A stretch of DNA of 64,000 nt from contig JACQRW010000024.1 of NCBI GenBank assembly GCA_016206285.1, positions 1,376 to 65,375 of the forward strand, in the 5' to 3' direction. The DNA is from Candidatus Sungiibacteriota bacterium. Lineage in GTDB: Bacteria; Patescibacteriota; Minisyncoccia; Sungbacterales; HO2-52-23. Made by a program: the position numbers and the translations under genes. Under the pieces are notes generated by a model that made no database searches, had not been told where the DNA came from, and saw nothing but the letters and a program-made list of their open reading frames with translations. Each line of letters begins with the position of its first letter. Position 1 is the first letter of the stretch. Of the stretch, positions 19,165 through 62,883 are shown one piece after another.

Positions 19165-19172
19165 ACGAAGAT

Positions 19173-20930: not shown

Positions 20931-22625
20931 TCAATCAAGTTCTTTTTGATAGCATTTCGCACATAAAATCTTCTGGCCCGCAAGCGAGGACGGATACTCG
21001 ACGGAAGCCCCGCATTGTTCACACACCCCATGCACACTCTTCAATTCCGCCATCCAGAGGTTTAATTTTTCCTTGATCCGGCACAGAGGACACCGGCGCG
21101 GCAGCGGCAGCGAGCGCCGTTTCAAAAAATCCAGCTCCCGGGGAATAATCCGAAAGCCGCGTCGGCATTCGGCACAGCGTATAATCTCTTTCAAAATCCG
21201 CTCGCCTGCATCTTTGATATGATCCGGCAACTCGGAGGCGTCGCGATCAATATGGTGTTCGGTTTTTTCTTCTTTTGTCCATACAAAACCTTGCGTACGC
21301 GCCTCATCTTCAGTACGCGGAAACATATTGTGTGCAAGAGATTCATTGTAGCCGTGGGGACTGAATTCCGGGGGAAAAAATTCACCGTAGAAGTATTTTC
21401 GTCCGACACGGTCCTCAAAGGGAACGCGGCGCATCTCGTCCTTGATTTTCCCGACAAGCGAATGATATTCCTCTTTCGAATATTGCTTGTTCAAAATGCA
21501 GTAGTGCTGGCTGCGAAGCGAGACACACCCAAAGGTATTGGAAGATCCCACGCCGCTTAATACCGTGTACTCCATGTCATACGCTCCCTCAAAACAGAGA
21601 TTACCAAAACGGATGTTTGCCGCGTTGCGCCCGACCAATCCCTCGTAGCAAGACTGGGCTTCTCCCCAAGTGGATATATCGTATGAATCTTTCACATCGC
21701 GCACCATGAAAAGATACCGGGAATCTTCTCCCCGCGTCACCTCATAACAATCTTTGCAATTTTTGGATTGGTGAACGTAATTTCCCGTGCAGTTCACCGA
21801 GAATTCGTCAAACCGGACTTTAGGCGGGTACTGCTGCCAATGAGATTCCGCCGCCTTTTTCGCCTCCATGTATATGCGATACGAGCCAAAATCCCATTTT
21901 TTCATCTCCTCAGCATACTTTTCCTTGGAATAAGGCTTATTGAAAATATGATATTGCTTGTTTCGCAAATTTGCAGAAGCAAAACAATCCGTGCAATGAT
22001 GACAATCCCGCAAAAACGAACAATACGCGGACTCATACACCTGATTGCGCAATCCCGTACCGTAACTCACCTTATAGATGTGCGCGGAGTCATAGCAGGT
22101 ATCACACTGCTGTATGAGCGAACAATCATAGGTGCTCTTTGAGCGAAACACATACACGCCATACGCGCAATCTTCCACTTCGTCGGTCTGCGAGAGAAGA
22201 TATGAGTCCTTCACTTTTCCGGCGTAATTATTGTAGGGCGAGTTCTGCGCGGTATCAAGATCAACCGCCAGACCTATGAGCGGAACGCTTTTCCATAACT
22301 CGCGAAACTGCTCGAAAAACGGCTTGGAAAAGTCATAGTCCCGGCCATAATCCCTCGCGTCCCACTTGTCGGACCACCAGCACTGCGGACAATACACCAC
22401 AAACGGAGCATCAGGATGGTAGTTGGTGATAAACGGCTGCTTACAAAGACCGCATATCCGGTGATAGAGGTGGATCAAATTCAAAAACGAAAGCCGCCGC
22501 TGCAGCCGACATTGGGGACACCACGTCGGCGCAGGCACCTGCATCTTCTCGTAAAACGCAAAATCCTCCGGCTCGATGGTAAAGGGATTTTTGCAATTCT
22601 GGCAGGTTTTGGTTTCTTTATTCAT
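20931..22625 (-). CDS. Cys-rich zinc-ribbon repeat protein, paralog F (same subfamily as A; start trimmed to MNKETKTCQNC)
   Basis: N-terminus matches paralog A through FLNLIHLYHRICGLC...YCPQCWWSDKWD. ATGA overlap with the paralog G stop at 22622-22625. Confidence 0.8.
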   Translation of the reverse strand: MNKETKTCQNCKNPFTIEPEDFAFYEKMQVPAPTWCPQCRLQRRLSFLNLIHLYHRICGLCKQPFITNYHPDAPFVVYCPQCWWSDKWDARDYGRDYDFSKPFFEQFRELWKSVPLIGLAVDLDTAQNSPYNNYAGKVKDSYLLSQTDEVEDCAYGVYVFRSKSTYDCSLIQQCDTCYDSAHIYKVSYGTGLRNQVYESAYCSFLRDCHHCTDCFASANLRNKQYHIFNKPYSKEKYAEEMKKWDFGSYRIYMEAKKAAESHWQQYPPKVRFDEFSVNCTGNYVHQSKNCKDCYEVTRGEDSRYLFMVRDVKDSYDISTWGEAQSCYEGLVGRNAANIRFGNLCFEGAYDMEYTVLSGVGSSNTFGCVSLRSQHYCILNKQYSKEEYHSLVGKIKDEMRRVPFEDRVGRKYFYGEFFPPEFSPHGYNESLAHNMFPRTEDEARTQGFVWTKEEKTEHHIDRDASELPDHIKDAGERILKEIIRCAECRRGFRIIPRELDFLKRRSLPLPRRCPLCRIKEKLNLWMAELKSVHGVCEQCGASVEYPSSLAGQKILCAKCYQKELD

Positions 22626-24367
22626 GCCATTTCTGCCTGGTAACACTCCTCGCAATAGATGATTTCTTTTCTTTCAGGAGCGTAACTTGTCTCAAATTCA
22701 TTTGGACATTGATTCAAACCATGAACATGGGAGCTTGCGTTAGCGTATATCCCATTGGCGCTCTTCTGCCCGGAGCAATGGCAATGTACTCGCCAGAGCT
22801 TGCGGGGATTGCGCATTGCCATGCGATCTTGTCTGCGACATGCAGGACACTTTGCAGGTATCGGCATGTTCATTTTCCGATAGAATGCCAGCTCCTCCGG
22901 CAGAATACGAAAAGCAGTAGTACAATGAAGATTTTTTTCTTTCGCGCCAGGGTCATCTTGCGAAACGCACCCGATGACTTTTTCAAGAATGCTTTCATTA
23001 GTATCTCCAATCGTTTCCGGAATGTCTTCCGGACGCAGAGTAATGCCATACCCGCGTTCAGGCCGCTCGTACCACCGCATCCCCTTTGACAGAACATCAG
23101 TTTTTGTAAGCGGAAAATAATCCTGTGCTACTGTTTCGTTGTATGCAAACAACGTACGGGTTGCGGGGAAAAATTCTCCCCACTCTTTGGTCTCTTTCAT
23201 GTGTGCGATGATTTTTTCAAGAAGTGCTGCATATTCCTCTTTGGTATACTGTTTGTTGAAGATACAGTACTCGGCTTTTTTCAGTCCAACACAGCCGAAA
23301 AGATCATGGCTGTTGGTACAGAGTTCGGAATAAAACGAGTTAAGCACCTGAACACTCTTAGTTACTCCGATAGAACTTTGCGCCGTGACGCCTTCATTTT
23401 CATATCCAAGCTCAACCCATGCCTCCGTGCAGTCAATGCTGTCTTTTGAATAATTGGTGTCCTGGCAATAGCGCAGATTCTCCGCCTCACTGGCGTGGAA
23501 AACCGCAAAGGAGTTTTTGATGTCATGGATGTAATCTCCTACGGAATGAAGTGTGTTTCTGCCGTGATAACTTTTATGCGGGTATCTCATCGCAAGCTCC
23601 ACGAGCAATATCTTCTCTTTTTGTATATTCGCGCGGCTGAATACAAATTCAGAAAGCCGCTTCTCGTATTCTTCGCGCGTCAGCTGCTCGTTTTTCCAGC
23701 AATATGATTTGTTCCGTAATCCATAGCATCCGAAACACGATGTGCATCCTCTGCAATCCTTCAAAAAATAACTTGTGGTCGTGTCGGCGCAGTCTTCAAG
23801 ATACGCGGAACGACTGCAATTGATACTATTAAGGGATTCGTACAGTAGTTCGCTTTGGAGGATGTCATAGCAGTCAACGGATTCGCGTGTTTTATCCAAC
23901 CAGTATCCGTAGAGGCAGTTTTCGGAATATGCCGTTGAGACGCACATGTAGCAGTTTTTGTTACTCACCGATTGATTTGTATATTCGGAATTGGTGCTAT
24001 GCCAATTTGCCATTGCAATATGCGGAACTTTCAGGCGAAATGCATGGAATTGTTCAAAGAACGGCTGCGAAAAATCAAAATCGCGGGCGTATGCATACGG
24101 ATCCCACCCATCCCCCCACCAGCACGAGTGGCAATATACCGGTCCCGGATATTCAGAATTATACAGAGAGACGGTATCCTTGGCGCACAGATCGCATTTC
24201 CGGCGGTAAAAATTCCATTCATTCCGGTTCGTAAGCCGCCGCTGATACCGGCACTCCGGACAAAACGTGGGCGGCGGCACTTTGATCTTCTCATAAAACG
24301 CAAAGTCCTCCGGTTCAATAGTAAAGCCAGTTTGGCAGTTTTGGCATTGTTTTTGTTCTGTCGGCAT
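22622..24367 (-). CDS. Cys-rich zinc-ribbon repeat protein, paralog G. Start chosen at MPTEQKQCQNC by alignment with the other paralogs; an alternative start 24 nt upstream at 24391 (MSWSQYYT...) is possible.
   Basis: Same architecture, ending ...YCEECYQAEMA. First gene of the G-F-E-D-C sub-operon, after the divergent intergenic region 24392-24535. Confidence 0.7.
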   Translation of the reverse strand: MPTEQKQCQNCQTGFTIEPEDFAFYEKIKVPPPTFCPECRYQRRLTNRNEWNFYRRKCDLCAKDTVSLYNSEYPGPVYCHSCWWGDGWDPYAYARDFDFSQPFFEQFHAFRLKVPHIAMANWHSTNSEYTNQSVSNKNCYMCVSTAYSENCLYGYWLDKTRESVDCYDILQSELLYESLNSINCSRSAYLEDCADTTTSYFLKDCRGCTSCFGCYGLRNKSYCWKNEQLTREEYEKRLSEFVFSRANIQKEKILLVELAMRYPHKSYHGRNTLHSVGDYIHDIKNSFAVFHASEAENLRYCQDTNYSKDSIDCTEAWVELGYENEGVTAQSSIGVTKSVQVLNSFYSELCTNSHDLFGCVGLKKAEYCIFNKQYTKEEYAALLEKIIAHMKETKEWGEFFPATRTLFAYNETVAQDYFPLTKTDVLSKGMRWYERPERGYGITLRPEDIPETIGDTNESILEKVIGCVSQDDPGAKEKNLHCTTAFRILPEELAFYRKMNMPIPAKCPACRRQDRMAMRNPRKLWRVHCHCSGQKSANGIYANASSHVHGLNQCPNEFETSYAPERKEIIYCEECYQAEMA

Positions 24368-25728: not shown

Positions 25729-27510
25729 TTACACAACTTCGCTCTGATAACACTGCTCACAGTATATGATCTCCGGACGGTCGGGCGAGTAGGAGGTTTG
25801 AAATTCATTGGTACAAGGCATATCACCATGAAAATGTTCTATATCATTGACATATGCTCCGTTTGTGGATTTTGAACCCCCGCACTGACAGCTCCGCAAC
25901 CAAAGCCGGACCGGATTACGCTGTCGCACCCGGCTATAATGTCGGCAACTGGGACAAAGTTTTGGGACCGGTATCTTCATCTGCCGGTAAAATTGCAGCT
26001 CCGGCGCGATAATGCGAAAAGCTTTGGTGCATTGCTCCTCGCACTGGCCTTTATGCCCGCATTCGATAATTTCTTTCAGAATCGAGTCGTCTATATTAGT
26101 GATATCGTCCGGAATGTCTTCGAATGTAAGCGTGGGGGTATGCGTTTTTTGATCCGGATCGCGCCATGAGAACCCCTGCGCCAATGCTTTTTCTTTGGTA
26201 AGAGGGTACGCCTCCTGGGCCAATGTTTCGTTGTAGGCAAACGGGCTGATTTCAATCGGGAAAAACTCCCCGTAGGCGTAACTACGGCCCTGCGTGCCCG
26301 CGTAGGGCATATCCTGCATATGTTGAATCAATCTGGGAACCAGTTCTTTGTATTCCACTTCAGAATATTGTTTATTCAGGATGCAGTATTGCTTGTTTCT
26401 CATACCAATACAGCCAAACAGATTGCTCACATGGTGGCAATTATATGAATAGTAGATATCATGCGAATTAAAAACGAATCGGGAGAAAAAAACTCTGCTG
26501 CCCGGGTACACGCTCGAACTTTCGTATACCAATTCCGTGTTCAAGCCCGCCCGATCCAGATCAAAACAATCTTTGATACGCGAGTAGGCAAGCACATCGT
26601 ACGCGCAATCTTCTGCGCCGCCAAAAACATCAAAACATTGGCGGCAGTTTTTTGCCTGTTCCAAATTGTCGCCAGTGGAGTTGGCAGTCTGAATCAGGCG
26701 GGCAAAACGGCGCGGAAAATTGACGGAAAAATTTGCAAACTTCTGTTTCAATTCTGTGATTTGCTTCGCATCACCCGAATTTATTTCCTTGAGTCGTTTT
26801 TGATACTCCTCTTTTGTAAGCTGCTCATTCCAAAAGCAGTAGGATTTATTCTTTAAATTCACGCATCCGAAACAATCATGGCAGTTTTTGCAGTTAAACA
26901 AGAAAGCGCTGTCATAACAATCATCGCAGTAACGGCTATACCTCAAACGCATACACGAAATGCAATCCACGGTCTCATAGTTGAACTCGCTCTTGGAAAC
27001 CCAGTAGGCATCCACGCACTCTTTGCAGTTAAAGACATAGGTAGAGTAAAGCGTGTTTTCATTAAAATCGCCCCCGAATACGAGATAGCAGTTTTTATTG
27101 CCCTCGGTTATACTGCAATACTCGCTGTTTATGGGGTTAATGTTCATGACCGCAATATCCGGCACCTCGCGCCATAACTCCTGGAGCTGTGTAAAAAACG
27201 GCTTGCTCCAGTCAATCTCTTTCCCATAATCCAGAGGATTCCAAGCATCTCCCCACCATGCTTGGTGATCATAGGTGCGCTGCGGATTGTCCGGCGAAAA
27301 GACCGAGATGGATTCTTCGGCATGTCCCGGTGCTTCGCATTTTTTCTTATACAAAGTCCGCTCGTTGCGAAACGCCAATCGGCGTTGGAGCCGGCAATTA
27401 AAACAAAACGTAGGCGGCGGCACGTTTATCTTCTCGTAAAACGCAAAGTCCTCCGGCTCGATGGTGAACGAGTTTTTGCAGTTTTGGCAGATTTTGGTTT
27501 CGGAATTCAT
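25729..27510 (-). CDS. Cys-rich zinc-ribbon repeat protein, paralog H (start trimmed to MNSETKICQNC)
   Basis: Ends ...YCEQCYQSEVV. ATGA overlap with the paralog I stop at 27507-27510, and SD-like AGGAAG inside the last codons of I. Confidence 0.8.
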   Translation of the reverse strand: MNSETKICQNCKNSFTIEPEDFAFYEKINVPPPTFCFNCRLQRRLAFRNERTLYKKKCEAPGHAEESISVFSPDNPQRTYDHQAWWGDAWNPLDYGKEIDWSKPFFTQLQELWREVPDIAVMNINPINSEYCSITEGNKNCYLVFGGDFNENTLYSTYVFNCKECVDAYWVSKSEFNYETVDCISCMRLRYSRYCDDCYDSAFLFNCKNCHDCFGCVNLKNKSYCFWNEQLTKEEYQKRLKEINSGDAKQITELKQKFANFSVNFPRRFARLIQTANSTGDNLEQAKNCRQCFDVFGGAEDCAYDVLAYSRIKDCFDLDRAGLNTELVYESSSVYPGSRVFFSRFVFNSHDIYYSYNCHHVSNLFGCIGMRNKQYCILNKQYSEVEYKELVPRLIQHMQDMPYAGTQGRSYAYGEFFPIEISPFAYNETLAQEAYPLTKEKALAQGFSWRDPDQKTHTPTLTFEDIPDDITNIDDSILKEIIECGHKGQCEEQCTKAFRIIAPELQFYRQMKIPVPKLCPSCRHYSRVRQRNPVRLWLRSCQCGGSKSTNGAYVNDIEHFHGDMPCTNEFQTSYSPDRPEIIYCEQCYQSEVV

Positions 27511-29273
27511 GAGATTTCTTCCTGATAACACGATTCGCAGTAGACGATTTCAGGACGGTCGGGAGCATAGGACGTTTCAAAATCATTGGAACACGGCTGG
27601 ACTCCATGAAGATGTGCACCCTCATTTTGATATGCTCCATTTTCGCTTTGCGCCCCGGCACACTGGCAGCGACGGAAATAAAACCGAACCGGATTCCGGC
27701 ATTTCATGCGTTCCCGATGACGACACGCGACACAAAGCCGCGGCAAAGGCAGCGACATGTTCTTTAGAAAATCAAATTCCATCTGGATAATCCGATATGC
27801 CCCTCCGCACGAACCGCATCGGATAACCTCCTTTAACAATGAATCTTCGGCATTGCGGATATGATCGGGCAGATCTTTTGCGTCAATAGTAGCTTCATGT
27901 CCCCTTGCTTCGGAATCATGCCAGGAATATCCCCTTTCCAGTGCTTCGTCTTTTTCCCGGGGAAGAAAATCGCCCGCGATCGTCTCGTTGTACGCAAACG
28001 GCGAAAACTCGGATGGGAAAAATTCACCGTAGCGATATATGTTTCCGCGCGCATCGGTATAGGGCATCTCATGCATATGCCGGATGATTTTCTCGCGAAG
28101 CGCGAAGTAATCCTCTTTTGAGTATTGTTTGTTGAAAATACAGTAGGACTTCTTTTTAAGTCCCACGCAGCCAAAAAGATAGCTGGGAGAAGAGTGACAA
28201 TGCACGGAGTATTCCACGTCGTGGGCGGAAGACCAGCAGTTCCAGCTGAATTTTACATTGTGACACGCATTTCCCGTTTGCAACGCCTCGTACATCAACT
28301 CCGATGTCTCGCCCCATAATGTATAGTCGTAGCTGTCCTTTGTCGCACCCAAATATACACCCTGACAATAACGCGAGTCCTCAATTTGCGTCGCATTATA
28401 ACAATACTTGGCATTTTTTCCGTATGAGACAAAATCTCCAGACACGCTGGCATTATGCCAGCCGGACATATATTTATAGGGCAGCGAGCGCCAGTGTTTT
28501 GCGACGCGTTCTTTTACCTCCACGAACGACTGATATGAGCCCTGATCGAAAATTCTTTTCAATTCTTCGCCATATGCTTCCCGGGTATACGGCTTGTTGA
28601 AAATGTGATACTGCTTGTTGCGAAGATTCGCAGATCCGAAACAATCTGAACATCCGACGCAATCCCGCGAGAACCATACGTTATGGCACTGTTCCAGATT
28701 ATGCGAATAAAAAACACGGTTGCAGTCGTATAGAAAAGACCCTTCATAGCACAGTTCATCGCGCATTCCCGTGGTCAGGTCAAAAGTACTTTTTAAATAC
28801 CCGGCATCAATGGCGTATGCCGCGTCTTCGGAGTAGCCGGTACTGAAGCAGAGATAGCAATTTTTAAGATAATAAGCGTTATTTGAATAGTCGGAGTTAA
28901 TGGCATTCGAAATATTTCTGCTTGCCCATGGAACCGCATACATTAACTCTTTGAACTGCTCAAAAAACGGCCGCGAAAAGTCATAATTCCTTCCGTAGTC
29001 CATCGGATCCCATGCATCGGACCACCAGTAATCTTTCTCATAGATTTTTATCGGCACATGCGGCGAAACCCAAGAAAATATCTCTTTTCCGGAAATATCA
29101 TCCCTTTTCCTGTACAAAACGCGCTCATTGCGAAACAAACACCGACGAATAAGTCTGCACTCCGGACAAAACGTAGGCGGCGGCACGTTTATCTTCTCGT
29201 AAAACACAAAGTCCTCCGGTTCGATAGTGAACGGCCTTTTGCAGTTTTGGCAGATGCGGGTTTCGGGGTTCAT
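27507..29273 (-). CDS. Cys-rich zinc-ribbon repeat protein, paralog I (first gene of the I-H sub-operon)
   Basis: 588 aa starting MNPETRICQNCKRPFTIEPEDFVFYEKINVPPPTFCPECR and ending ...YCESCYQEEIS. Same subfamily as paralog B. Confidence 0.8.
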   Translation of the reverse strand: MNPETRICQNCKRPFTIEPEDFVFYEKINVPPPTFCPECRLIRRCLFRNERVLYRKRDDISGKEIFSWVSPHVPIKIYEKDYWWSDAWDPMDYGRNYDFSRPFFEQFKELMYAVPWASRNISNAINSDYSNNAYYLKNCYLCFSTGYSEDAAYAIDAGYLKSTFDLTTGMRDELCYEGSFLYDCNRVFYSHNLEQCHNVWFSRDCVGCSDCFGSANLRNKQYHIFNKPYTREAYGEELKRIFDQGSYQSFVEVKERVAKHWRSLPYKYMSGWHNASVSGDFVSYGKNAKYCYNATQIEDSRYCQGVYLGATKDSYDYTLWGETSELMYEALQTGNACHNVKFSWNCWSSAHDVEYSVHCHSSPSYLFGCVGLKKKSYCIFNKQYSKEDYFALREKIIRHMHEMPYTDARGNIYRYGEFFPSEFSPFAYNETIAGDFLPREKDEALERGYSWHDSEARGHEATIDAKDLPDHIRNAEDSLLKEVIRCGSCGGAYRIIQMEFDFLKNMSLPLPRLCVACRHRERMKCRNPVRFYFRRCQCAGAQSENGAYQNEGAHLHGVQPCSNDFETSYAPDRPEIVYCESCYQEEIS

Positions 29274-29919: not shown

Positions 29920-31407
29920 CTACCCCAACAGTTTCTTCATGATTTCTTGCACCAATGCAGGATTGGCTTTGCCGCGGGTTTCTTTCATGACCTGGCCGAC
30001 GAGGAATTGGAGCACCGTAGTTTTGCCGGAGCGGTAGTCGGCAGCAACTTGAGGGTTTTCGGCAATGATGTGTGCCACAATATTTTCAAGATCGCCGGCA
30101 TCAGACATCTGCCAGAGTCCTTTTTCGTTGATGAATTCGGATGGGTCCGCGCCGGTGCGAAATGATTCTTCGAAGACCTCTTTTGCATTGGTGTTTGAGA
30201 TTTTGTTTTCCGATACCAAAACAACGATCTCGGCAAAATTTTCCGGTGTCAACAGTACTTCACTCACCGGAACCATCGTCTCTTTGAGCAAGCGCATAAA
30301 ATCTCCTACCATGAATGCACCAATGGTTTTGATAAGACTCTTTTTTGGCGCATCAGGAGTTTCTTTATCATGTTGCATTGCCTCGCTTACCACCGCCTCA
30401 AAATAATCACCAATTGCTTTTTCGCGTACGATGATTTGGGCATGATCTCCTTCAATGCCGTACTCTTTCATAAACCGCTCTTGTTTTGCGGCAGGCAACT
30501 CCGGCAAGTGGATGCGAATTTCTTCAACATACGCGGCGGACAAACGCAGCGGCGGCAGATCCGGCTCCGGAAAATACCGGTAGTCGTGCGCTTCTTCCTT
30601 GGAGCGCTGGGAAACGGAAATGCCTTTGTGTTCATTCCACCCGCGGGTTTCCTGTGCGATCTTCTCTCCCCTCTCCAACAGCTCGACTTGCCGCTTCATC
30701 TCGTATGCAGCGGCATCGGCGGCATATTTGAATGAGTTGATGTTTTTCACCTCCACCTTGGTGCCAAATTCTTTCTGCCCCACCGGCCGCATGGAGATAT
30801 TTACCTCCACGCGCATCTGTCCCTTTTCCATATTGGCATCTGATGCGCCCACATAACGTACGATCTGCTGCAATGCCTCGCCAAACTGCCGTACCTCCTC
30901 GCCTGTGCGGAAATCCGGCTCGGTCACCAGCTCCATAAGCGGCACGCCCGCACGATTGAAATCCACCAATGATGTTTTTCCGTCCTTGTCATGGCTAAGC
31001 CGCCCCGTATCTTCTTCCAGATGAATTCTGGTGACTCTGATTTTCTTTTTCTCTTGCTCTTTGTTATGTGTTCCTTGCGTCGTGATCTCCAAATACCCTC
31101 CGCTCACGATCGGATACTTATACTGTGAAATTTGATAGCCTTTCGGCAGATCGGGATAAAAATAATTTTTCCGGTCAAATTGGGAAAACTCCCCGATGGT
31201 TCCGTTGATTGCCAGACCCATGGCAATAACTTTCTTGACTGCATCCTCGTTGATAAACGGCAGCGTACCCGGATGTCCCATGCAGATGGGGCAGATATTG
31301 GTATTGGGGTGCTGCTCGTCCGGGTCATTGAGCGAGTAGCAGAACATTTTGGTCTTGGTATTGAGCTCGGCATGGATCTCCAAGCCGATTACAGCTTCGT
31401 ATTGCAT
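29920..31407 (-). CDS. gatB: Aspartyl/glutamyl-tRNA(Asn/Gln) amidotransferase subunit B
   Basis: N-terminus EAVIGLEIHAELNTKTKMFC...CPICMGHPGTLP; full-length 495 aa with the C-terminal YqeY-like tail. Confidence 0.9.
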   Translation of the reverse strand: MQYEAVIGLEIHAELNTKTKMFCYSLNDPDEQHPNTNICPICMGHPGTLPFINEDAVKKVIAMGLAINGTIGEFSQFDRKNYFYPDLPKGYQISQYKYPIVSGGYLEITTQGTHNKEQEKKKIRVTRIHLEEDTGRLSHDKDGKTSLVDFNRAGVPLMELVTEPDFRTGEEVRQFGEALQQIVRYVGASDANMEKGQMRVEVNISMRPVGQKEFGTKVEVKNINSFKYAADAAAYEMKRQVELLERGEKIAQETRGWNEHKGISVSQRSKEEAHDYRYFPEPDLPPLRLSAAYVEEIRIHLPELPAAKQERFMKEYGIEGDHAQIIVREKAIGDYFEAVVSEAMQHDKETPDAPKKSLIKTIGAFMVGDFMRLLKETMVPVSEVLLTPENFAEIVVLVSENKISNTNAKEVFEESFRTGADPSEFINEKGLWQMSDAGDLENIVAHIIAENPQVAADYRSGKTTVLQFLVGQVMKETRGKANPALVQEIMKKLLG

Positions 31408-51782: not shown

Positions 51783-52667
51783 TTATTCTGGTGTAATACT
51801 GCCAAGCACTACGATTGAAATGATGACCAATACAAGCCCGAGTATTTGATGATATTTGAGCTTCTCCCTGTTAAAATAGAAGCCCAGAAAACTTGCAAGC
51901 GCAATATAGCCCTCGCTTATACTGGTGGCAACCGCAATCGGAATATACAATGTCGCGTATGAAAACATGATCCATGCCAGATTATCAAAGAAACTCACGT
52001 TGAAAATCAATCTTTTATTTTGTTTGAAGTCGGCAGCGGCTTCCCGCAATCGGGAAGCAGAGATCAAATAAACAAAAGCGACAACCGCAATAAACGCGCT
52101 GGTGAACCAGTTGATCATAAGCGGGCTGATCGCCCGCGCGCCGATGCCAAAAAGAAAGTTCACGGCCCCCATGCACAAAGCCGCGGACAACGCGTACCAT
52201 ATGCCTTTTTCGAGATGGATAGTTTTAACATGATGGAACGACTTCGTGGATACGAGAAAAATCCCGATCATTGATGACCCGATCAGCAGACCCTGAAGCA
52301 AGGTAAGCCTTTCACGGATAATGTAGAGCGATAACACGACGGTAACGATAATCTCAAGCGCATAAATAGGCTCAATCACGGAGATTTTGCCCACTCTTAA
52401 GGCTTCGAAATCAAGCAGCGCCGCAAGCAATATGGCGCAGCTTGCAACAAGAAGCAGGATCGTATGGCTGTTCAAAGCGCTTGCGAGATCGCGATAGACA
52501 AAAGGAAGCAGGATGATCGAACCGAACGCAGTTATATAAAACAGCGCGATCCAGTCGCCGAATTTTCTGGCGCTTCGCTGGATCAGAAAATCGCCAAGAC
52601 CCCATGAAAACAACGCGGCAAGCGCAAAAAGAATTCCCATAAAGACGCGGACAAATTGTTGTCCCAT
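51783..52667 (-). CDS. EamA/DMT-superfamily transporter (10 TM)
   Basis: Two repeated 5-TM EamA-like halves, 294 aa. Confidence 0.7.
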   Translation of the reverse strand: MGQQFVRVFMGILFALAALFSWGLGDFLIQRSARKFGDWIALFYITAFGSIILLPFVYRDLASALNSHTILLLVASCAILLAALLDFEALRVGKISVIEPIYALEIIVTVVLSLYIIRERLTLLQGLLIGSSMIGIFLVSTKSFHHVKTIHLEKGIWYALSAALCMGAVNFLFGIGARAISPLMINWFTSAFIAVVAFVYLISASRLREAAADFKQNKRLIFNVSFFDNLAWIMFSYATLYIPIAVATSISEGYIALASFLGFYFNREKLKYHQILGLVLVIISIVVLGSITPE

Positions 52668-52682
52668 TATTTAGTTTACCGT

Positions 52683-52755
52683 GGGCGGCTAACGGGAATC
52701 GAACCCGTGATAAGAGCTCCACAAGCTCCTGTGTTGCCTCTACACCATAGCCGCC
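52683..52755 (-). tRNA. tRNA-His (anticodon GUG); G-1 not genomically encoded
   Basis: Acceptor GGCGGCU/AGCCGCC with discriminator C, anticodon stem GGAGC/GCUCU with loop UUGUGGA, T-arm ACGGG-UUCGAUU-CCCGU. Confidence 0.8.
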
Positions 52756-52843
52756 ATATATTTAGACAGTATAGCAGAAAAACGGCTCTTGACAAGGAGC
52801 TTCAGGGGGTATATTATGCAGATAGTAAGAAGCGAAACGCGTT

Positions 52844-53032
52844 ATGAGAAAGTTAAATGAAAGACAGCGCGAGGTATTGGCCGAAAAATTCGCGGATTTG
52901 GGAAATATTTCAATAGGATCGCTGGTATTCGGATTTGTTCTCCAGTCCAATGTCTTGAACGGATTGTCGTTGTTTATCGGGTTGGGTATTGCGTTTGCCA
53001 CCTACGGCATATCAATCTCATTACAAAAATAA
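52844..53032 (+). CDS. Possible small 2-TM membrane protein
   Basis: 62 aa ORF with a hydrophobic C-terminal half; weak support. Confidence 0.3.
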   Translation: MRKLNERQREVLAEKFADLGNISIGSLVFGFVLQSNVLNGLSLFIGLGIAFATYGISISLQK

Positions 53033-53151
53033 CTCAAGAAATATGGTCCAGCAACTTTTCACACCATTGAACCTATTCTTGCTCGGCATACTGGCCATGA
53101 TACTTATTTTTGGCACATGGGGAATCATGTCGCGCCCGCACAGATAACAAT

Positions 53152-53223
53152 ATGAAATTTATCATCACTCAAAACATCAGACATCATCATGCACGCTTCT
53201 CTTGCGAAAGAGGGTTACATTGA
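53152..53223 (+). CDS. Candidate His-rich leader peptide (MKFIITQNIRHHHARFSCERGLH) of a hisS attenuator
   Basis: Three consecutive CAT His codons (53182-53190) plus a fourth His, lying in the 180-bp leader upstream of hisS and followed by alternative hairpins. Confidence 0.5.
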   Translation: MKFIITQNIRHHHARFSCERGLH

Positions 53224-53267
53224 TGCGTCCGGTTTCTCTTCTTAGTTTTATTCCGACATCAGCATAA

Positions 53268-53299
53268 CCCCCTCTCGCAACGAGAGGGTTTTATTTATT
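53268..53299 (+). promoter_or_regulatory. Attenuator terminator (CCCCCTCTCG-caa-CGAGAGGG + TTTTATTTATT). The competing antiterminator pairs AGAGGG (53209-53214) with CCCTCT (53270-53275).
   Basis: Region 1 TTCTCTT (53197-53203) can pair with region 2 AAGAGGG (53208-53214), region 2 with region 3, and region 3 with region 4. This is the classic 1:2 / 2:3 / 3:4 arrangement. Confidence 0.5.
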
Positions 53300-53332
53300 G
53301 AATTATCAGCCATAAAATGATACTATTTTCTC

Positions 53333-54655
53333 ATGTCAGATCAAATCAAAAAACCTAACCGCATCAAGCCGGAGCTGCCGAGCGGGTTTCGGGATTACGG
53401 GCCCGCGGATGCGATTGCGAAGCAGGCGATGATTGATACGATTCGAAAGACCTTCGAGCGTTTTGGATTTGATCCGCTGGAGACCTCGTCGGTGCAGCGC
53501 ACCGAAGTGCTGACCGGAGGCGAGGAAGATTCGGGAAAGATCATCTTTAATGTAAAGGGATCACAGGAGGAAACTTCGGACAGTTCGCTTCGTTTCGATC
53601 TGACCGTGCCGCTTGCACGGTTCATGGCGGCCAATCCAGACCTGCCCAAACCCTTTAAGCGCTATCAGATCGGCAATGTCTGGCGCGGCGAGCGGCCCCA
53701 GCAGGGACGGTACCGCGAATTTCTTCAGGCGGATGTGGATATTGTAGGATCATCTTTGATCGATGCAGATGCGGAGATTGCAACCATTATCTATACCGTA
53801 TTCAAAAATCTCGGCATTGAGAATTTTGTCATCAACTACAACAACCGGAAGATGCTGGACATGCTTCCTAAATTTGCTGGATTCCCTGAAGAAAAACTAT
53901 GGGATGCGCTGCGTATTATAGATAAAAAAGACAAGATCGGAGAAGACGGGATTCGCGGCGAACTGGAGAAAAATTTTTCAGGATCGATCGCTGATAAGAT
54001 TTTAGAGTTTCTGACGGAGGATTTCGAACCCACGCTGCAAGGAGAGGGATTTAGTGAATACGGGAAAATTGCAAGTATGATTCTCCAAAGCACGGGGTGT
54101 GATGTCGATATGGTAAATAAATTTTTTAAATTAGAACGGACTCTTGTACGCGGACTCTCCTACTACACCGGATCGGTTTTTGAAGTAACGCTTCCAGATG
54201 CGCCTGAAATAGGCAGCGTGTGCGGCGGCGGAAGATATGATGAACTCGTCTCTCAATTTACCGGGCAGAACATCCCGGCGGTGGGCGTATCGTTTGGTGT
54301 TGACCGTCTGTTTGCCGCAATGGAAAAAATCGGAACGCTCAAGAAAAAACAAACGCTTACCCAAGTGCTCATTCTGCAACTGGATGCCAACCTGAAAGAT
54401 GAGTATCTTTCTATGGCACAAGAATTGCGCAATGCCGGGATCAACACCGCTCTTTACATGGGCGATGACTCGATGCTAAAAGGACAGCTGAATTACGCGC
54501 TTAAGAAAGAAATTCCGTACGTGGTGATCTGTGGCAGCCGTGAGAAAGAAAAAAACGTCGTTACGGTGAAAAATCTGGCAACGCGGGAACAGCAAGAGAT
54601 CACTAGAGAGAAGATAGTTGAATTTTTTGGAAAGCAAGCTGCTCTATGCGTTTGA
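53333..54655 (+). CDS. hisS: Histidine--tRNA ligase
   Basis: Class II motifs (FRDYGP...; RFDLTVPLAR; YQIGNVWRGERPQQGRYREFLQADVD; GGGRYDEL) and the C-terminal anticodon-binding domain. Confidence 0.9.
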   Translation: MSDQIKKPNRIKPELPSGFRDYGPADAIAKQAMIDTIRKTFERFGFDPLETSSVQRTEVLTGGEEDSGKIIFNVKGSQEETSDSSLRFDLTVPLARFMAANPDLPKPFKRYQIGNVWRGERPQQGRYREFLQADVDIVGSSLIDADAEIATIIYTVFKNLGIENFVINYNNRKMLDMLPKFAGFPEEKLWDALRIIDKKDKIGEDGIRGELEKNFSGSIADKILEFLTEDFEPTLQGEGFSEYGKIASMILQSTGCDVDMVNKFFKLERTLVRGLSYYTGSVFEVTLPDAPEIGSVCGGGRYDELVSQFTGQNIPAVGVSFGVDRLFAAMEKIGTLKKKQTLTQVLILQLDANLKDEYLSMAQELRNAGINTALYMGDDSMLKGQLNYALKKEIPYVVICGSREKEKNVVTVKNLATREQQEITREKIVEFFGKQAALCV

Positions 54656-54673
54656 AAATTGAAAATTAACTAA

Positions 54674-54745
54674 GCCCCCGTAGCTCAATGGATAGAGCAG
54701 TGCTCTTCTAAGGCATTGATGAGGGTTCGATTCCTTCCGGGGGCA
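54674..54745 (+). tRNA. tRNA-Arg (anticodon UCU)
   Basis: Acceptor GCCCCCG/CGGGGGC, D-arm GCUC-AAUGGAUA-GAGC, anticodon loop CUUCUAA, T-loop UUCGAUU. Confidence 0.8.
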
Positions 54746-54751
54746 ATTGCA

Positions 54752-55093
54752 TTATCGGGCTTTGGTTGACGATGCCGCACTCCCCGGCTCTTCATACACG
54801 CTCAAAATATCATCGAATTTTTTTTGGCGGGCATCGAGAAGCCCCAATGTTTCTGTGATTTCTTTTTCGGAAAGATTTATTTTCTTTTCGCTTCCGGCAA
54901 CAGGCTGGCGCACCTTGACTACATCGGTATAGAATACCAGGCCGTCAAAAAGCAGCACGCCCACGGCGAGCATTGCAAGAGCGTATGTGCCAATGACAAC
55001 GCTGCGTCCCCGCAGGATTCGAAAAGCCCGTGCTAAGAGGTTCTGTTTCGCATCCGGAGACGCGCGATGAAAGAATGAGGTGAAAAAAATCAT
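54752..55093 (-). CDS. Hypothetical small membrane protein at the distal end of the pilus cluster (PilP-position)
   Basis: 113 aa with one TM helix; assigned from position only. Confidence 0.35.
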   Translation of the reverse strand: MIFFTSFFHRASPDAKQNLLARAFRILRGRSVVIGTYALAMLAVGVLLFDGLVFYTDVVKVRQPVAGSEKKINLSEKEITETLGLLDARQKKFDDILSVYEEPGSAASSTKAR

Positions 55094-56176: not shown

Positions 56177-57301
56177 TTATGAAGTACGAAGGCTCCGAAG
56201 CGCCAGACCAATGGTGGTTGCAAACGCCAGGGATTCATTTCTGCGAAGCGGCGGCACCGCAAATAAATGCCGGGGATACGCGGCAACCAACGGATCGGCA
56301 AGGCGCACCGGCAGACGCACCGCCTGGGAAAGATAGGTTTCAAGGCCAAAGAGACTGGCATCGCCCCCGACCAGCATGATGGATTGCACCGCATCAGACG
56401 CGCCATGCATATGTTCGGCATGATGGCTGTAATATGCAACCACCCGTTTTAATTCATCTCCAAGAACCGCCATAATCGGAAGCAGCGCATCAAATACGGC
56501 ACCATTCCGTTCTTTGCGGTTCAACCCGGTCTCGATTTTTATCAGGCGCGCCTCCTGCGGACTTATGTGAAAGGCTTTTGCGAGATGTTCTTCAAAAAGC
56601 TGTCCCCCCAGCTCAATCGTAGTCGTAAAAACGATCGCCCCGCCGACGCATACGATAAAACTGGTCCGGGTGCGCCCGATATCCACAATAATGCGGCTGA
56701 TGTTGTCGGCAAAATCCGGTACAACCGACCGGGTAATTGCCTGAGATTCGAGCTCAAGCGCGGCAAGCGACAGACCGGCGCGATGAAGCACCCGGACATA
56801 CCCCTCAATCAGCGATTTTGGAAAAGCCGTCACCGCCACGTCAAGATGATCCGTCTGTTTTGCGCGATCCGGCGGCACAATAATCTCATAATCATAAATC
56901 AACTCATCAAACGCAAGCGGAATATTCGCCTCTATTTCCCACCGGATCGCGTGTTCCACCTCCTCTTCTTTCATTTGTGGCAGCTGGATCACCCGCAAGA
57001 AACTTTTTTCTTCCGGAAGCGATACGACAAAAAACGACGACCGGGGAATCCGCTTTTCACCGGCCCGCCACTCGGAGAAAATGCGCGAAAGCTCGTCTTC
57101 TTTTTCTTTTTGAATCTCGCCTTTCACGATAATCCCCTCCGGCACGGAAAATTCACCGGAAGCCGCAAGGCCGTGTACGCCTTTTTTTATTTTGGGATCA
57201 AACGCAAGATATTTTACGGAAACATCCGAAATATCAAGCCCCGCGATCGGAAGCCGAACCATTGGACCGACATACTGCTCGATGAACTGTGAGATGCGCA
57301 T
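56177..57301 (-). CDS. pilM: Type IV pilus assembly ATPase-like protein PilM (actin/FtsA fold); start trimmed to MRISQFIEQY
   Basis: GLDISDVSVKYLAFD and IVDIGRTRTSFIVCVGG match the PilM/FtsA phosphate-binding loops. Confidence 0.75.
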   Translation of the reverse strand: MRISQFIEQYVGPMVRLPIAGLDISDVSVKYLAFDPKIKKGVHGLAASGEFSVPEGIIVKGEIQKEKEDELSRIFSEWRAGEKRIPRSSFFVVSLPEEKSFLRVIQLPQMKEEEVEHAIRWEIEANIPLAFDELIYDYEIIVPPDRAKQTDHLDVAVTAFPKSLIEGYVRVLHRAGLSLAALELESQAITRSVVPDFADNISRIIVDIGRTRTSFIVCVGGAIVFTTTIELGGQLFEEHLAKAFHISPQEARLIKIETGLNRKERNGAVFDALLPIMAVLGDELKRVVAYYSHHAEHMHGASDAVQSIMLVGGDASLFGLETYLSQAVRLPVRLADPLVAAYPRHLFAVPPLRRNESLAFATTIGLALRSLRTS

Positions 57302-60676: not shown

Positions 60677-61657
60677 CTATGGTTCCGTTATCGTCCCGCC
60701 GGACGAGCCCACGGTAAGCGTACGGCAATCCGCCTCGTAGGTGGCAATCCAGCTCGCGTCAATTTCAATTTTGACTTTTTTGGTATTCAGGCGGCAATCA
60801 CGATCTATGGAAAGCGCAGTATCGGCACCGGAAAGCGCCAGGGTATGTATGCGCAGTACCTGGTCAAATCCGCCGATCGTGTTGGTTCCGGACCAGTCGA
60901 ATTTTGTTTTGCCGCCGTCAAAGTAGCCGGCCATGGGAATGGTCACTACCGTATCTGTGCCGGGCGGATCCGAAAACGTAAGTTTCAGGTTGGCTGAATC
61001 CTGAATGCTCCAGCCCAGTTGATACGAGCGGTGGCGCGTATCAAATACCCTGCTGTTGGACGGCGTTGCTGCGGGCTGCGATTCATACACCTTGCCGGTT
61101 TTTTCTATTACTACGCTGCCGGACAATGCCGCAGATCCTGGAACCTGCATAGTAAAAGAGCCGTCCTGATCGGTCTCGCCGCTCAATTGTTTAAATACCA
61201 CATCAGCACCGCCGCCGGTGAGTGAAATCGCCGCAATCTGAACAGTCTGTGGAAGCAAGAACGCCTGCGTGTAGGTGGCCGACGCATACGAGCTTCCCCG
61301 AAAAAGAATTGCCTGCGTCTGTTCCAGATGAACGCCCCAGACAGACCCGTCCTCTCCGGCAAGGGTACGCGCCTGCGCCGTGCGCAAGAAAGAGATCACG
61401 CTCTCCCGCGATGTCGTCAGATCGTGGGTATTGCGCGAATTGATAAAAGATGCGAGCACCATGCCAGCCAGCAAAGTCGCGATCCCGGCAACAATTATGA
61501 TTTCAATAAAAGTAAACCCTGTGTTTCCCGAAGAATTTTCAGATTTGAGCGCAGTTCGAGGCGCGGGTGAGCACCGAAGTAAGGCGTAGGATTCCCTACG
61601 CCGTCGAGGAGCGGAACCCGCAACAAAGAAATGTGCCAAAAATGAAAATTCTTTCAT
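60677..61657 (-). CDS. Prepilin-type protein with canonical G/FTFIE motif (candidate major pilin); true start uncertain, since the leader is unusually long from the first ATG
   Basis: NTGFTFIEIIIVAGIATLLAGMVLA is the class III signal peptide cleavage/methylation motif. Confidence 0.65.
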   Translation of the reverse strand: MKEFSFLAHFFVAGSAPRRRRESYALLRCSPAPRTALKSENSSGNTGFTFIEIIIVAGIATLLAGMVLASFINSRNTHDLTTSRESVISFLRTAQARTLAGEDGSVWGVHLEQTQAILFRGSSYASATYTQAFLLPQTVQIAAISLTGGGADVVFKQLSGETDQDGSFTMQVPGSAALSGSVVIEKTGKVYESQPAATPSNSRVFDTRHRSYQLGWSIQDSANLKLTFSDPPGTDTVVTIPMAGYFDGGKTKFDWSGTNTIGGFDQVLRIHTLALSGADTALSIDRDCRLNTKKVKIEIDASWIATYEADCRTLTVGSSGGTITEP

Positions 61658-62883
61658 ATGTTGTTTAGGCTGCCATAAATCGGCTGCAGCATCGCAACCG
61701 CAAAAAACCCAACGGCAATGCCGATCACGACCATAAGCAGCGGCTCGATGATCGTGGAAAGGTTTTTGGTGGTGGCGGTCACATCTTCTTCAAAAAACAG
61801 TGCAAGCCGCAGCATCATTTCCGATATTTTGCCGGTCTGCTCGCCGACACTGATCATCTGAATCACCATGGGCTGAAAAAGCTGCGGGTATTTTACCAAA
61901 ATCGTATGCAATTCGGTTCCTTTTTGTATTTCCGCGGATGCTTCATGCACCGCAGTCCGAAAGAGCGAATTTCCCAGTACCGACGAGGTAATCTCAAGAG
62001 ACTTTACGATCGGCACTCCGGAGGTAATCAAGTACGAGAGCGTCCGGCAAAACCGGGCAATATTGTATTTTTGGACAAGCGCCCCGAATATCGGCAGCTT
62101 CAAAACCACGCGGTCAAAAACTTCATGCCCGGCAGTACTCTTGAGCATCCGCCAAAATAAAACCCCGATTATCGCAATTCCCCCAAGCAGCCATATCCAG
62201 CGATACACTACAAAATCGCTGATAAAAATAATGATCCGCGTGCTCAAGGGCAGCTCCACGTTCAGTTCCTTGATCGTTTGCGCGAGCGACGGCACCACAT
62301 AGAGCATCATGAGCGTGCCGATCAGACAAAGCACCGTTAAAATAATAATCGGATAGGTCATGGCTCCGCGCACCCGCTTTCGCAGGTCATAATCTTTCTT
62401 CATCTGGTTGGCAAGCAGTTTGAGCACGAGTGCCAGCTTGCCCGTAGCCTCCCCCACCTCGATCATATTGATATACAGCTCGCCAAAAACATCCTGATGC
62501 GGGCGCAGGGCTTCGCCAAAAGGCTTTCCCTGCACCACCGAGCTTTTTATATCAGCCAGAATGCGCTGGAACTTTTTATTGCTCGACTGGTCTCCGGACA
62601 CTTCAAGCGCCTTGGTGAGCGGCAAGCCTGCCGACACCATGATCGCAAGATTGCGCGAAAAAAACATCTTATCCAAAATCGAAATCCCTTTCAAAGCCAC
62701 AATGAGCGCGCCAATATCCACATTAAAACGCCGTCCGGAAACAGCAGCTTTGTCTTTTGCCTCCAATAAAAATAACTCCTCAGCCTTGAGCGCCGCGGCA
62801 AGAGCTTTTTCACTTTCCGCCTCCCGCTCCCCATGCGTTGTTTTTCCCTTCTGATCCGCAGCCGTGTAAATATACATTGGCAT
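61654..62883 (-). CDS. pilC: Type IV pilus/T2SS platform protein (GspF/PilC family)
   Basis: Two T2SSF repeats and three TM segments, 409 aa, with a 4-nt overlap onto the downstream prepilin gene. Confidence 0.85.
   Translation of the reverse strand: MPMYIYTAADQKGKTTHGEREAESEKALAAALKAEELFLLEAKDKAAVSGRRFNVDIGALIVALKGISILDKMFFSRNLAIMVSAGLPLTKALEVSGDQSSNKKFQRILADIKSSVVQGKPFGEALRPHQDVFGELYINMIEVGEATGKLALVLKLLANQMKKDYDLRKRVRGAMTYPIIILTVLCLIGTLMMLYVVPSLAQTIKELNVELPLSTRIIIFISDFVVYRWIWLLGGIAIIGVLFWRMLKSTAGHEVFDRVVLKLPIFGALVQKYNIARFCRTLSYLITSGVPIVKSLEITSSVLGNSLFRTAVHEASAEIQKGTELHTILVKYPQLFQPMVIQMISVGEQTGKISEMMLRLALFFEEDVTATTKNLSTIIEPLLMVVIGIAVGFFAVAMLQPIYGSLNNI

Follow-up and report, generated by a model that had tools for sequence, protein, structure and literature searches.

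A Conserved His-Codon Leader with Alternative RNA Helices Upstream of hisS in Sungbacteria, Probably a Leader-Peptide Attenuator

The hisS Locus and Its Leader ORF

The DNA upstream of hisS, the gene for histidyl-tRNA synthetase, was analyzed in a stretch of 64,000 nucleotides from a Candidatus Sungiibacteriota bacterium (Parcubacteria; contig JACQRW010000024.1; this whole stretch is called the window). It contains a short open reading frame (ORF) with consecutive His codons and a set of alternative RNA helices that end in a terminator. The leader ORF, which lies on the forward strand from the ATG at 53152 to the TGA at 53221-53223 (53152..53223), has 23 codons and reads MKFIITQNIRHHHARFSCERGLH followed by the stop. 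Its codons 11-13 are CAT CAT CAT (His-His-His, 53182-53190), in agreement with a preliminary description of this DNA which had placed an ORF with three consecutive CAT codons before hisS. Among the 423 small ATG ORFs of the window with a length of 15-45 aa the leader ORF is the only one encoding HHH, and (CAY)3 was found twice in 128 kb (window, both strands).

The leader RNA can be divided into four regions on the forward strand. Region 1 consists of CAUCAUGCA (53185-53193) and segment A, CUUCUCUU (53196-53203), and the His codons themselves form part of it. In the centroid fold and in the RNAalifold consensus its partner is region 2, which is composed of A' (AAGAGGG, 53208-53214) and B (TTACATTGATG, 53215-53225) and can also be written as AAGAGGG plus UUACAUUGAUG (53208-53225). 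The leader stop codon sits inside region 2, in segment B. Region 3 is made up of B' (CATCAGCATAA, 53257-53267) and the C arm (CCCCCTCTCG, 53268-53277), or, in another notation, of CAUCAGCAUAA and CCCCCUCUCG (53257-53277). It pairs either with region 2 as an antiterminator or with region 4 as a terminator. Region 4 comprises CGAGAGGG (53281-53288) and the U tract TTTTATTTATT (53289-53299) and forms, together with 53270-53277, an intrinsic terminator.

The three pairing segments named in the preliminary description, TTCTCTT (53197-53203), AAGAGGG (53208-53214) and CCCTCT (53270-53275), are all present. Its alternative 1:2 and 2:3 pairings exist as well, but the helices are larger than described, since the His codons together with GCA (53185-53193) also pair with TTACATTGATG (53215-53225), and TTACATTGATG alternatively pairs with CATCAGCATAA (53257-53267). 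Within 53196-53214 a small hairpin is formed by CTTCTCTT with AAGAGGG. The GC-rich terminator downstream of the leader ORF was found again as the hairpin CCCTCTCG-caa-CGAGAGGG (53270-53288) followed by TTTTATTTATT (53289-53299). It was the best terminator-like site returned by a terminator search of 52000-55000, and it has a stem of 8 bp with 6 G-C pairs and a loop of 3 (-13.6 kcal/mol for the isolated hairpin); TTTTATTTATT is located 45 nt before hisS. The fold of 53140-53300 had a z-score of -2.8, and none of 200 shuffled sequences was as stable. Two direct repeats, 53177-53201 / 53252-53276 (D1, 72%) and 53209-53224 / 53283-53298 (D4, 81%), and a 24-nt inverted repeat (I1) were detected. 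D1 and D4 correspond to the pairs of regions 1 and 3 and of regions 2 and 4, a likeness that is expected because the design of a four-region attenuator requires exactly such repeats. Region 3 holds a near copy of the His-codon stretch (CATCAGCAT), which is untranslated.

Upstream of the leader ORF a promoter, P1, with TTGACA, a 17-nt spacer and TATTAT (11 of 12 matches) was identified at 52789..52817 on the forward strand. It is predicted to drive a small operon consisting of orf62 (52844..53032, forward), which encodes a small predicted membrane protein of 62 aa and is the first cistron, of orf34 (53043..53147, forward), a small hydrophobic ORF of 34 aa, and of the leader ORF as the last cistron. 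A Pfam search of orf62 and orf34 returned no family. The preliminary description had spoken of a 300-nt leader. The leader ORF is indeed there, but the DNA before it is not a simple 5' untranslated region, since P1 drives two small ORFs ahead of it. The stop codon TAA of orf34 (53145-53147) is found 4 nt before the leader ATG, which suggests translation of the leader ORF by translational coupling or by reinitiation after orf34.

The hisS gene itself (53333..54655, forward) encodes a histidine--tRNA ligase of 440 aa with the Pfam domain tRNA-synt_His. The protein is 100% identical to P0001, annotated as histidine--tRNA ligase, from a Candidatus Sungbacteria metagenome-assembled genome (MAG), and the closest hisS loci obtained in the HisS scan were likewise from Sungbacteria/Sungiibacteriota MAGs. 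It is the sole gene that can be reached by readthrough from the terminator. Between the terminator and the hisS ATG, a second promoter is present at 53298..53326 on the forward strand, with the -35 element TTGAAT (53298-53303), a 17-nt spacer and the extended -10 element TGaTACTAT (53318-53326). Since the hisS ATG follows only 6 nt after the -10 element, the hisS transcript is predicted to be leaderless and to arise independently of the upstream element.

Conservation of the Element in Related Loci

Relatives were gathered by HisS scans and look-ups of close HisS homologues, and 170 sequences were then searched with nhmmer using the element alignment. The loci carry L numbers. All of them were fetched around hisS, so the association of the element with hisS partly reflects the choice of loci. 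The element was found in 14 distinct Sungbacteria-type hisS loci of the candidate phyla radiation (CPR), namely the window and 13 others; a truncated copy in L084 (identical to L085) is the fifteenth. The window has it once, and nhmmer detected no copies dispersed over 1 Mb of loci. Over HisS proteins that are 43-81% identical to that of the window, the element is much better conserved than the adjacent intergenic DNA.

The leaders of the 13 relatives, each ending at a stop codon, are as follows, with the identity of HisS to the window protein in brackets: MGVITMTLYLTISHHHAHFSCE in L161 (81%), MKLITNQNIRHHHAHFSCERGLH in L169 (80%), MKLINQNINHRHVYFSCKRGLH in L165 (77%), MKISTFATRHHHTANLPTRRERIALMS in L002, which equals L166 (74%), MKFVINQNINHHHHASFSCERGLH in L168 (73%), MSFIISQKINRHHASFSCE in L170 (72%), MKFITNQNIRHYHAHFSCERGLH in L171 (71%), MRPIINQNINHHHASFSCERGLH in L109 (69%), MILNIAQRHHHATNLSRERVALMR in L005, which equals L082 and L083 (69%), MNFKLSQTRTHHHATNLSRERVALMS in L115 (65%), ...SSWMMHHSQILSRKRPVAMS in L091 (62%), MIQKIQRHHHARNLSQERVALML in L087 (61%) and ...NQHHHNFSSLGRGLC in L127 (43%). 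The hisS gene of L169 is interrupted at about 1460 by an in-frame stop, which may be an assembly error in this low-coverage contig or may mark a pseudogene.

With the exception of L127, all loci have the element before hisS and co-oriented with it. In the window, L161, L165, L168, L169, L170 and L109 the next gene after the terminator is hisS, and the hisS promoter lies between the two. In L171 a Shine-Dalgarno site and a HisG-family gene (625-1419) come after the terminator, and hisS comes next. The assignment to HisG rests on PF01634, for which the 48.8 bits exceed the cutoff of 25.5; the score for TIGR00070 was below its cutoff. This divergent gene of the HisG (ATP phosphoribosyltransferase) family is surprising, as histidine biosynthesis is expected to be absent from the lineage; its product might work with HisS as HisZ works with HisG. 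One to three unrelated genes intervene between the element and hisS in L005 (DUF6282), L084 (PNP_UDP_1, HAD and an uncharacterised protein) and L091 (GCS2 and GGACT), and a remnant of the L005-type gene is retained in L002. No histidine link is obvious for the DUF6282 amidohydrolase, GCS2, GGACT, PNP_UDP_1 or HAD genes, and the HisG-family gene is confined to L171. The common denominator of the loci is hisS.

The surroundings of the element also recur. TTGACA promoters homologous to P1 are present upstream of it in L002, L161, L165, L169, L170, L171, L005, L115 and L091. Homologues of orf62 occupy the same position in L109, L161, L165, L170, L171 and L087, and homologues of orf34 are found in L109, L161, L165, L168, L169, L170, L171 and L087; the two ORFs accompany the leader ORF in at least 7 genomes. 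In L002, L005, L115 and L091 the leader ORF comes directly after the promoter, and orf62 and orf34 are missing. A tRNA-His gene with the anticodon GTG, i.e., the tRNA that reads the control codons, was located by ARAGORN and by the Rfam tRNA model at 52683..52754 on the reverse strand of the window, divergent from the small operon. This tRNA gene also lies upstream in L109, L002, L161, L169, L170 and L171. A tRNA-His gene adjoining hisS is a common layout in related Sungbacteria loci (L006, L008-L012, L081, L092-L104).

The promoter in front of hisS is conserved to an extent which shows that its match in the window is not due to chance. Among 44 related hisS loci, 35 have a TAnnnT hexamer upstream of the hisS ATG, 4-7 nt away and, with one exception, 6-7 nt away. 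Of these 35 loci, 32 have the TG extension and 30 a -35 element matching in at least 4 of 6 positions. This promoter is kept whatever lies upstream. The loci L001, L162, L163 and L167, which have no leader, show TTGAAT-17-TAC(T/C)AT-6-ATG or TTGAAG-17-TACTTT-6-ATG. In L001 a sequence resembling a miniature inverted-repeat transposable element (MITE), with long terminal inverted repeats (GGACTTACGCGTTT ... AAACGCGTAAGTCC), is inserted upstream of hisS at about 1200-1390, where other loci have the leader element.

Evidence for a Translated His Frame

An ATG ORF in the His frame was present in all 12 members tested, and the other two frames lacked an ATG in 23 of 24 cases. In L170 and L171, which were found later, the His frame was checked by eye and is open. 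The N-termini of the leaders are unrelated between subfamilies (MKFIITQNIR, MILNIAQR, MNFKLSQTRT, MNAINSQKINEILNQ and others). All 14 members contain 2-4 His codons. Most have HHH; the others have HHHH (L168), HRH (L165), HYH (L171), RHH (L170) or HH (L091). Where close relatives differ by indels within the ORF, the length is always a multiple of 3, as in the extra CAT of L168 and the 3-nt deletion of L165. At the third His codon T and C alternate without a change of the amino acid, including cases in which an RNA pair is lost (alignment columns 18/54). The stop codon is always found in or just after region 2.

The conserved nucleotides AGAGGGTTGCATTGATG after HHHA are read as ..RGLH-stop in the window subfamily and as ..ERVALM.-stop in the subfamily of L005, L087, L115 and L002, and in L161 and L170 the stop codon comes earlier. 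The same nucleotides are therefore read in different frames between subfamilies, which points to selection on the His codons and on the RNA rather than on the peptide. In L005, L115 and L091 the leader ATG has a TTGAC(A/G) promoter with the -10 hexamer 7-11 nt upstream of it, which is the leaderless signature of this genome.

This signature is based on the genes of the window. A Shine-Dalgarno-like motif was found before about 6 of 62 window genes, and operon-internal genes do without it as well; in 11 of the 62 a -10 hexamer precedes the ATG by 5-8 nt. These counts suggest that leaderless and Shine-Dalgarno-independent initiation is widespread in the genome. Since such motifs are rare even inside operons, hisS, which lacks one, could plausibly be translated from a readthrough RNA. 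Many first genes have an extended -10 element 5-8 nt upstream of the ATG, for example at 2444, 29920-31407, 50153, 56177-57301 and 61654-62883.

Conservation and Folding of the Alternative Helices

Pairing was counted in a 12-sequence alignment (A2), with slid partners as controls. For helix 1:2, 90.6% of the cells were paired against 30-54% in the slid controls, and a compensatory change between UA and CG was seen in 5 sequences. Helix 2:3 was paired in 94.8% of the cells against 39-54% in the slid controls. It varied in an A-U / G.U / G-C series (columns 52/119) and in a U.G / U-A / G-C series. Both helices use alignment columns 40-60 and are therefore mutually exclusive. Unguided RNAalifold returned 1:2 together with the terminator (3:4). 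In isolation, the energies of 1:2, 2:3 and 3:4 were -12.4, -17.8 and -13.6 kcal/mol for the window and -23.1, -18.3 and -11.3 kcal/mol for L169. Terminator hairpins occur at the equivalent site in all relatives. This helix was inspected sequence by sequence, since differences in loop length throw the 3' arms out of register in MAFFT.

The position of the leader ORF on the RNA fits the two exclusive helices, as a stall at the His codons would hide region 1 and a ribosome at the stop codon would hide region 2. The effect of such ribosomes was modeled on RNA truncated at the end of the terminator 5' arm, the moment of decision, because full-length equilibrium folds with ribosome masks did not discriminate the states. 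With a ribosome at the stop codon the terminator 5' arm was free in 10 of 12 members (probability of being paired 0.00-0.18). When the ribosome was instead placed on the last His codon, as in a stall, the arm paired with region 2 (probability 0.35-0.83). In the untranslated RNA it was free in L169, L168, L165, L002, L087 and L115. The three expected states were clean in L169, L168, L165, L002 and L115, in which the switch score was reached by 0-2 of 100-150 dinucleotide shuffles. They were less clean in the window, L109, L161, L091 and L127.

A search of the window against Rfam at gathering scores returned tRNA only, with no T-box, His_leader (RF00514) or other family. At E-values up to 10, the sequence 52750-53450 gave chance hits to miRNA and snoRNA models and again neither T-box nor His_leader.

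Proposed Mechanism and Its Weak Points

These data are probably best explained by ribosome-mediated attenuation of transcription through a leader peptide, in which charged tRNA-His would be sensed and readthrough into hisS adjusted accordingly; the element is probably a real histidine sensor of the classical type. Transcription would begin at P1 (52789-52817). Translation would proceed through orf62 and orf34 and then, probably after ribosomes reinitiate 4 nt past the orf34 stop codon, through the 23-codon leader ORF. As long as His-tRNA is plentiful, the ribosome should reach the UGA in region 2 and cover this region. Region 3 would then be free to pair with region 4, and transcription would stop at 53289-53299. 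If the leader is not translated, 1:2 and 3:4 could both form, and transcription should likewise stop. When His-tRNA is scarce, the ribosome would stall on the CAU codons and cover region 1. Region 2 could then capture region 3 before RNA polymerase has made region 4, so that no terminator would form and transcription would go on into hisS. The efficiency of termination would in this way respond to histidine. The promoter at 53298-53326 would supply leaderless hisS mRNA constitutively, and the readthrough RNA would come on top of it. A link to histidine is further given by the adjoining tRNA-His gene, the co-oriented hisS and the hisG-like gene in L171.

The sequence observations of the preliminary description were confirmed as a whole, and its interpretation was partly supported. 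Its core idea of attenuation rather than a T-box held up against the relatives. The logic of the enterobacterial his and trp attenuators, on which it had drawn, recurs in 14 genomes as a putatively translated His-codon ORF combined with a terminator/antiterminator switch. It had also proposed looking for the His codons and the hairpins in relatives, where both turned out to be conserved. Control of hisS by this switch was upheld in part, since readthrough into hisS is possible, but the gene has its own conserved promoter and does not depend on the leader. This promoter limits the regulatory range of the attenuator. Because this promoter lies between terminator and ATG, the attenuator can only add His-dependent readthrough to the constitutive transcript. 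Transcription of hisS therefore does not depend on readthrough; such dependence is not a strict defining feature of attenuators, as dual control exists elsewhere.

Several further observations weigh against the proposed attenuator. The element was not found in the available sequence of L162, L163, L164, L001, L167, L081, L003 and L004, several of which include little upstream DNA. The element-free close relatives, about half of all close relatives, have HisS proteins 70-80% identical to that of the window. Since they do without the element and hisS keeps its own promoter, the element is dispensable for hisS expression. A gene in convergent orientation stands between the element and hisS in L087 and L115, and in L127 the element is located downstream of hisS, before a radical-SAM-like gene. 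There (2375-2530) the 3' arm of the last hairpin overlaps the Shine-Dalgarno sequence GGAGG of the radical-SAM-like gene and no U tract follows, which suggests a translational rather than a transcriptional version. U tracts are also poor in L087, L091 and L002.

The control codons and the folds are not uniform either. A His codon is replaced in L165 (middle, CGT), L171 (middle, TAT) and L170 (first, CGT). The run of three His codons given in the preliminary description thus holds for most members, but these three relatives show that at least two His codons, not three, are required. Two of the replacements lie inside helix 1:2 (A-to-G in L165, C-to-U in L171) and keep G.U pairing, so RNA pairing also constrains these bases. 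In most members the full-length RNA folds into the terminator at equilibrium even with a ribosome stalled on it. Antitermination must therefore be kinetic, as in classical attenuators. The minimum-energy fold of the full-length window RNA is one long hairpin and not the terminator. The switch score of the window is weak (0.09, reached in 20 of 150 shuffles), which is due to the weakening of 1:2 by a G-to-A change in region 2 (TTACAT), and the scores of L109, L161, L091 and L127 are unremarkable too.

Alternative Explanations

The element might instead be the 3' end of an operon of small proteins. The products of orf62 and orf34 and the HHH peptide would then be functional, the latter perhaps by binding a metal through HHH..C..H. 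The hairpins would serve as operon terminator and stabilizing structure, and hisS would rely on its own promoter alone and would not be regulated by the element. We consider this unlikely, although it would readily accommodate the separate conserved hisS promoter, the lack of the element in about half of the close relatives within the available sequence, the convergent gene in L087 and L115 and the joint occurrence of orf62 and orf34 with the leader ORF. The peptide ..NQNI.HHHA.FSCERGLH is also well conserved in the window subfamily. However, beyond HHHA the peptide is read in different frames between subfamilies and is truncated by the stop codons in L161 and L170, which argues that its C-terminal part is not under selection at the protein level. 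Moreover, L002, L005, L115 and L091 have the leader ORF without orf62 and orf34. A plain terminator needs neither two exclusive conserved helices sharing region 2 nor a stop codon in that region, and the position of an HHH ORF beside tRNA-His, hisS and, once, a hisG-like gene would be a coincidence.

In a variant of the attenuator model, which we regard as rather more doubtful still, the attenuator would select the kind of hisS mRNA, leaderless or leadered and polycistronic. With sufficient histidine, hisS would be transcribed only as a leaderless mRNA from its own promoter. During shortage, readthrough from the strong P1 would occlude this promoter and yield a leadered polycistronic mRNA. The two hisS mRNAs would be translated by different initiation routes. 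If so, a leader-peptide attenuator, itself started by leaderless or reinitiating ribosomes, would pick the expression mode of an essential gene in a genome with few Shine-Dalgarno sites.

An RNA switch that is not read by ribosomes appears quite improbable. According to this explanation CAUCAUCA would be conserved only for its pairing with UGAUG, the ORF would be incidental, and another factor (a protein, uncharged tRNA-His or temperature) would choose between 1:2 / 3:4 and 2:3. The participation of the His-codon stretch in the conserved helix 1:2, the G.U pairing retained at the substituted middle His codons of L165 and L171 and the untranslated near copy CATCAGCAT in region 3 agree with it. 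Against it stands the ATG ORF in the His frame of 12 out of 12 members despite unrelated N-termini, compared with 1 of 24 in the other frames. In-frame indels including the extra CAT, the synonymous T/C change that breaks pair 18-54, the -10 elements placed for a leaderless leader ATG in L005, L115 and L091 and the constant location of the stop codon in or just after region 2 also speak for ribosomes as readers. Furthermore, neither a T-box nor another Rfam family matched at E-values up to 10.

A chance structure or relic, i.e., a tandemly duplicated, decayed terminator or a MITE-like palindromic insert containing CATCATCAT, was rejected as hardly credible: the direct repeats (72% and 81%), the 24-nt inverted repeat, the single long hairpin of the full-length minimum-energy fold and an unrelated MITE-like insert at the same place in L001 would suit it, but the repeats are those predicted for a four-region attenuator (regions 1 and 3, regions 2 and 4), and the element is conserved in 14 genomes (HisS 43-81% identical), better than neighbouring intergenic DNA, and is present once in the window without scattered copies in 1 Mb of loci.

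Comparison with Known Attenuators

The proposed attenuator shares several features with the enterobacterial his (hisL, RF00514), trp, phe, thr and leu leaders. In these leaders a short ORF contains successive codons for the amino acid that is sensed, and overlapping 1:2, 2:3 and 3:4 helices end in an intrinsic terminator. Region 1 holds the control codons, the stop codon is found in region 2 or close to it, and untranslated RNA terminates. In contrast, the Sungbacteria element shows no sequence or covariance-model similarity to them (no Rfam match). Its leader ORF either is leaderless or comes last in a small operon, and the regulated gene has an extra promoter downstream of the terminator. 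The hisL leader contains 7 His codons and controls a biosynthetic operon, whereas the Sungbacteria element has 2-4 and would control an aminoacyl-tRNA synthetase gene.

The preliminary description had held that synthetase genes are usually regulated by T-boxes in Gram-positives or not at all and that a leader-peptide attenuator would be an unusual solution for hisS. The first statement went too far, as such attenuators have been described or predicted for pheST, trpS, leuS and a hisS paralogue. The pheST attenuator is known in gamma-proteobacteria, and attenuators of trpS and leuS were predicted in Streptomyces (PMC1262725). As proposed here, leader-peptide attenuation of E. coli pheST, with the pheM leader peptide, and of Streptomyces trpS and leuS raises expression of a synthetase gene when its own charged tRNA is scarce. 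These cases concern other amino acids and other phyla and are not homologous, and in the Sungbacteria locus a constitutive leaderless promoter is placed between terminator and gene.

For bacilli, Naville and Gautheret (2010, PMC2965389) predicted a His leader peptide ahead of a hisS paralogue and hisZ. Common to both computational predictions are a short His-codon ORF and a premature terminator before a gene of the hisS family. Compared by description, the cases differ in that the Firmicutes leader precedes a hisS paralogue and hisZ, the regulatory subunit of HisG, and the element described here a housekeeping hisS in CPR bacteria. The Firmicutes hisS T-box has the regulated gene, the tRNA-His charging signal and the output by terminator or antiterminator in common with it. 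However, the T-box senses uncharged tRNA directly and without an ORF, whereas the Sungbacteria element of about 120 nt contains a conserved ORF and matches no T-box model.

The principle of leader-peptide attenuation of aminoacyl-tRNA synthetase genes is consequently already known, with cases described or predicted in proteobacteria, actinobacteria and bacilli. The unusual features of the present case are the leaderless or coupled leader ORF, the constitutive leaderless promoter past the terminator and the occurrence in a lineage with minimal metabolism. CPR bacteria have not been cultured, their genomes are tiny, and they rely on amino acids that they scavenge. To our knowledge almost nothing is known about their gene regulation, and a search of the available papers for leader peptides or attenuation in CPR retrieved no report. 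If the proposed attenuator is real, transcription and translation in these organisms would be coupled tightly enough for classical attenuation. They would monitor the charging of tRNA-His and adjust histidyl-tRNA synthetase, and in one relative a hisG-like gene, to it. The element would add a case in which the leader ORF is itself leaderless or translationally coupled. With its 14 members it constitutes a putative RNA regulatory family absent from Rfam, which can be used for the annotation of other CPR genomes.

Further Features of the Window

Directly after hisS a tRNA-Arg(tct) gene is located at 54674-54745 on the forward strand. A tRNA-Arg(TCT) gene also follows hisS in L001-L004 and L081. 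Elsewhere in the window three paralogous two-gene cassettes encoding proteins of about 560-630 aa, with near-identical junctions, were observed on the reverse strand at 15596-19263, 20931-24367 and 25729-29273.

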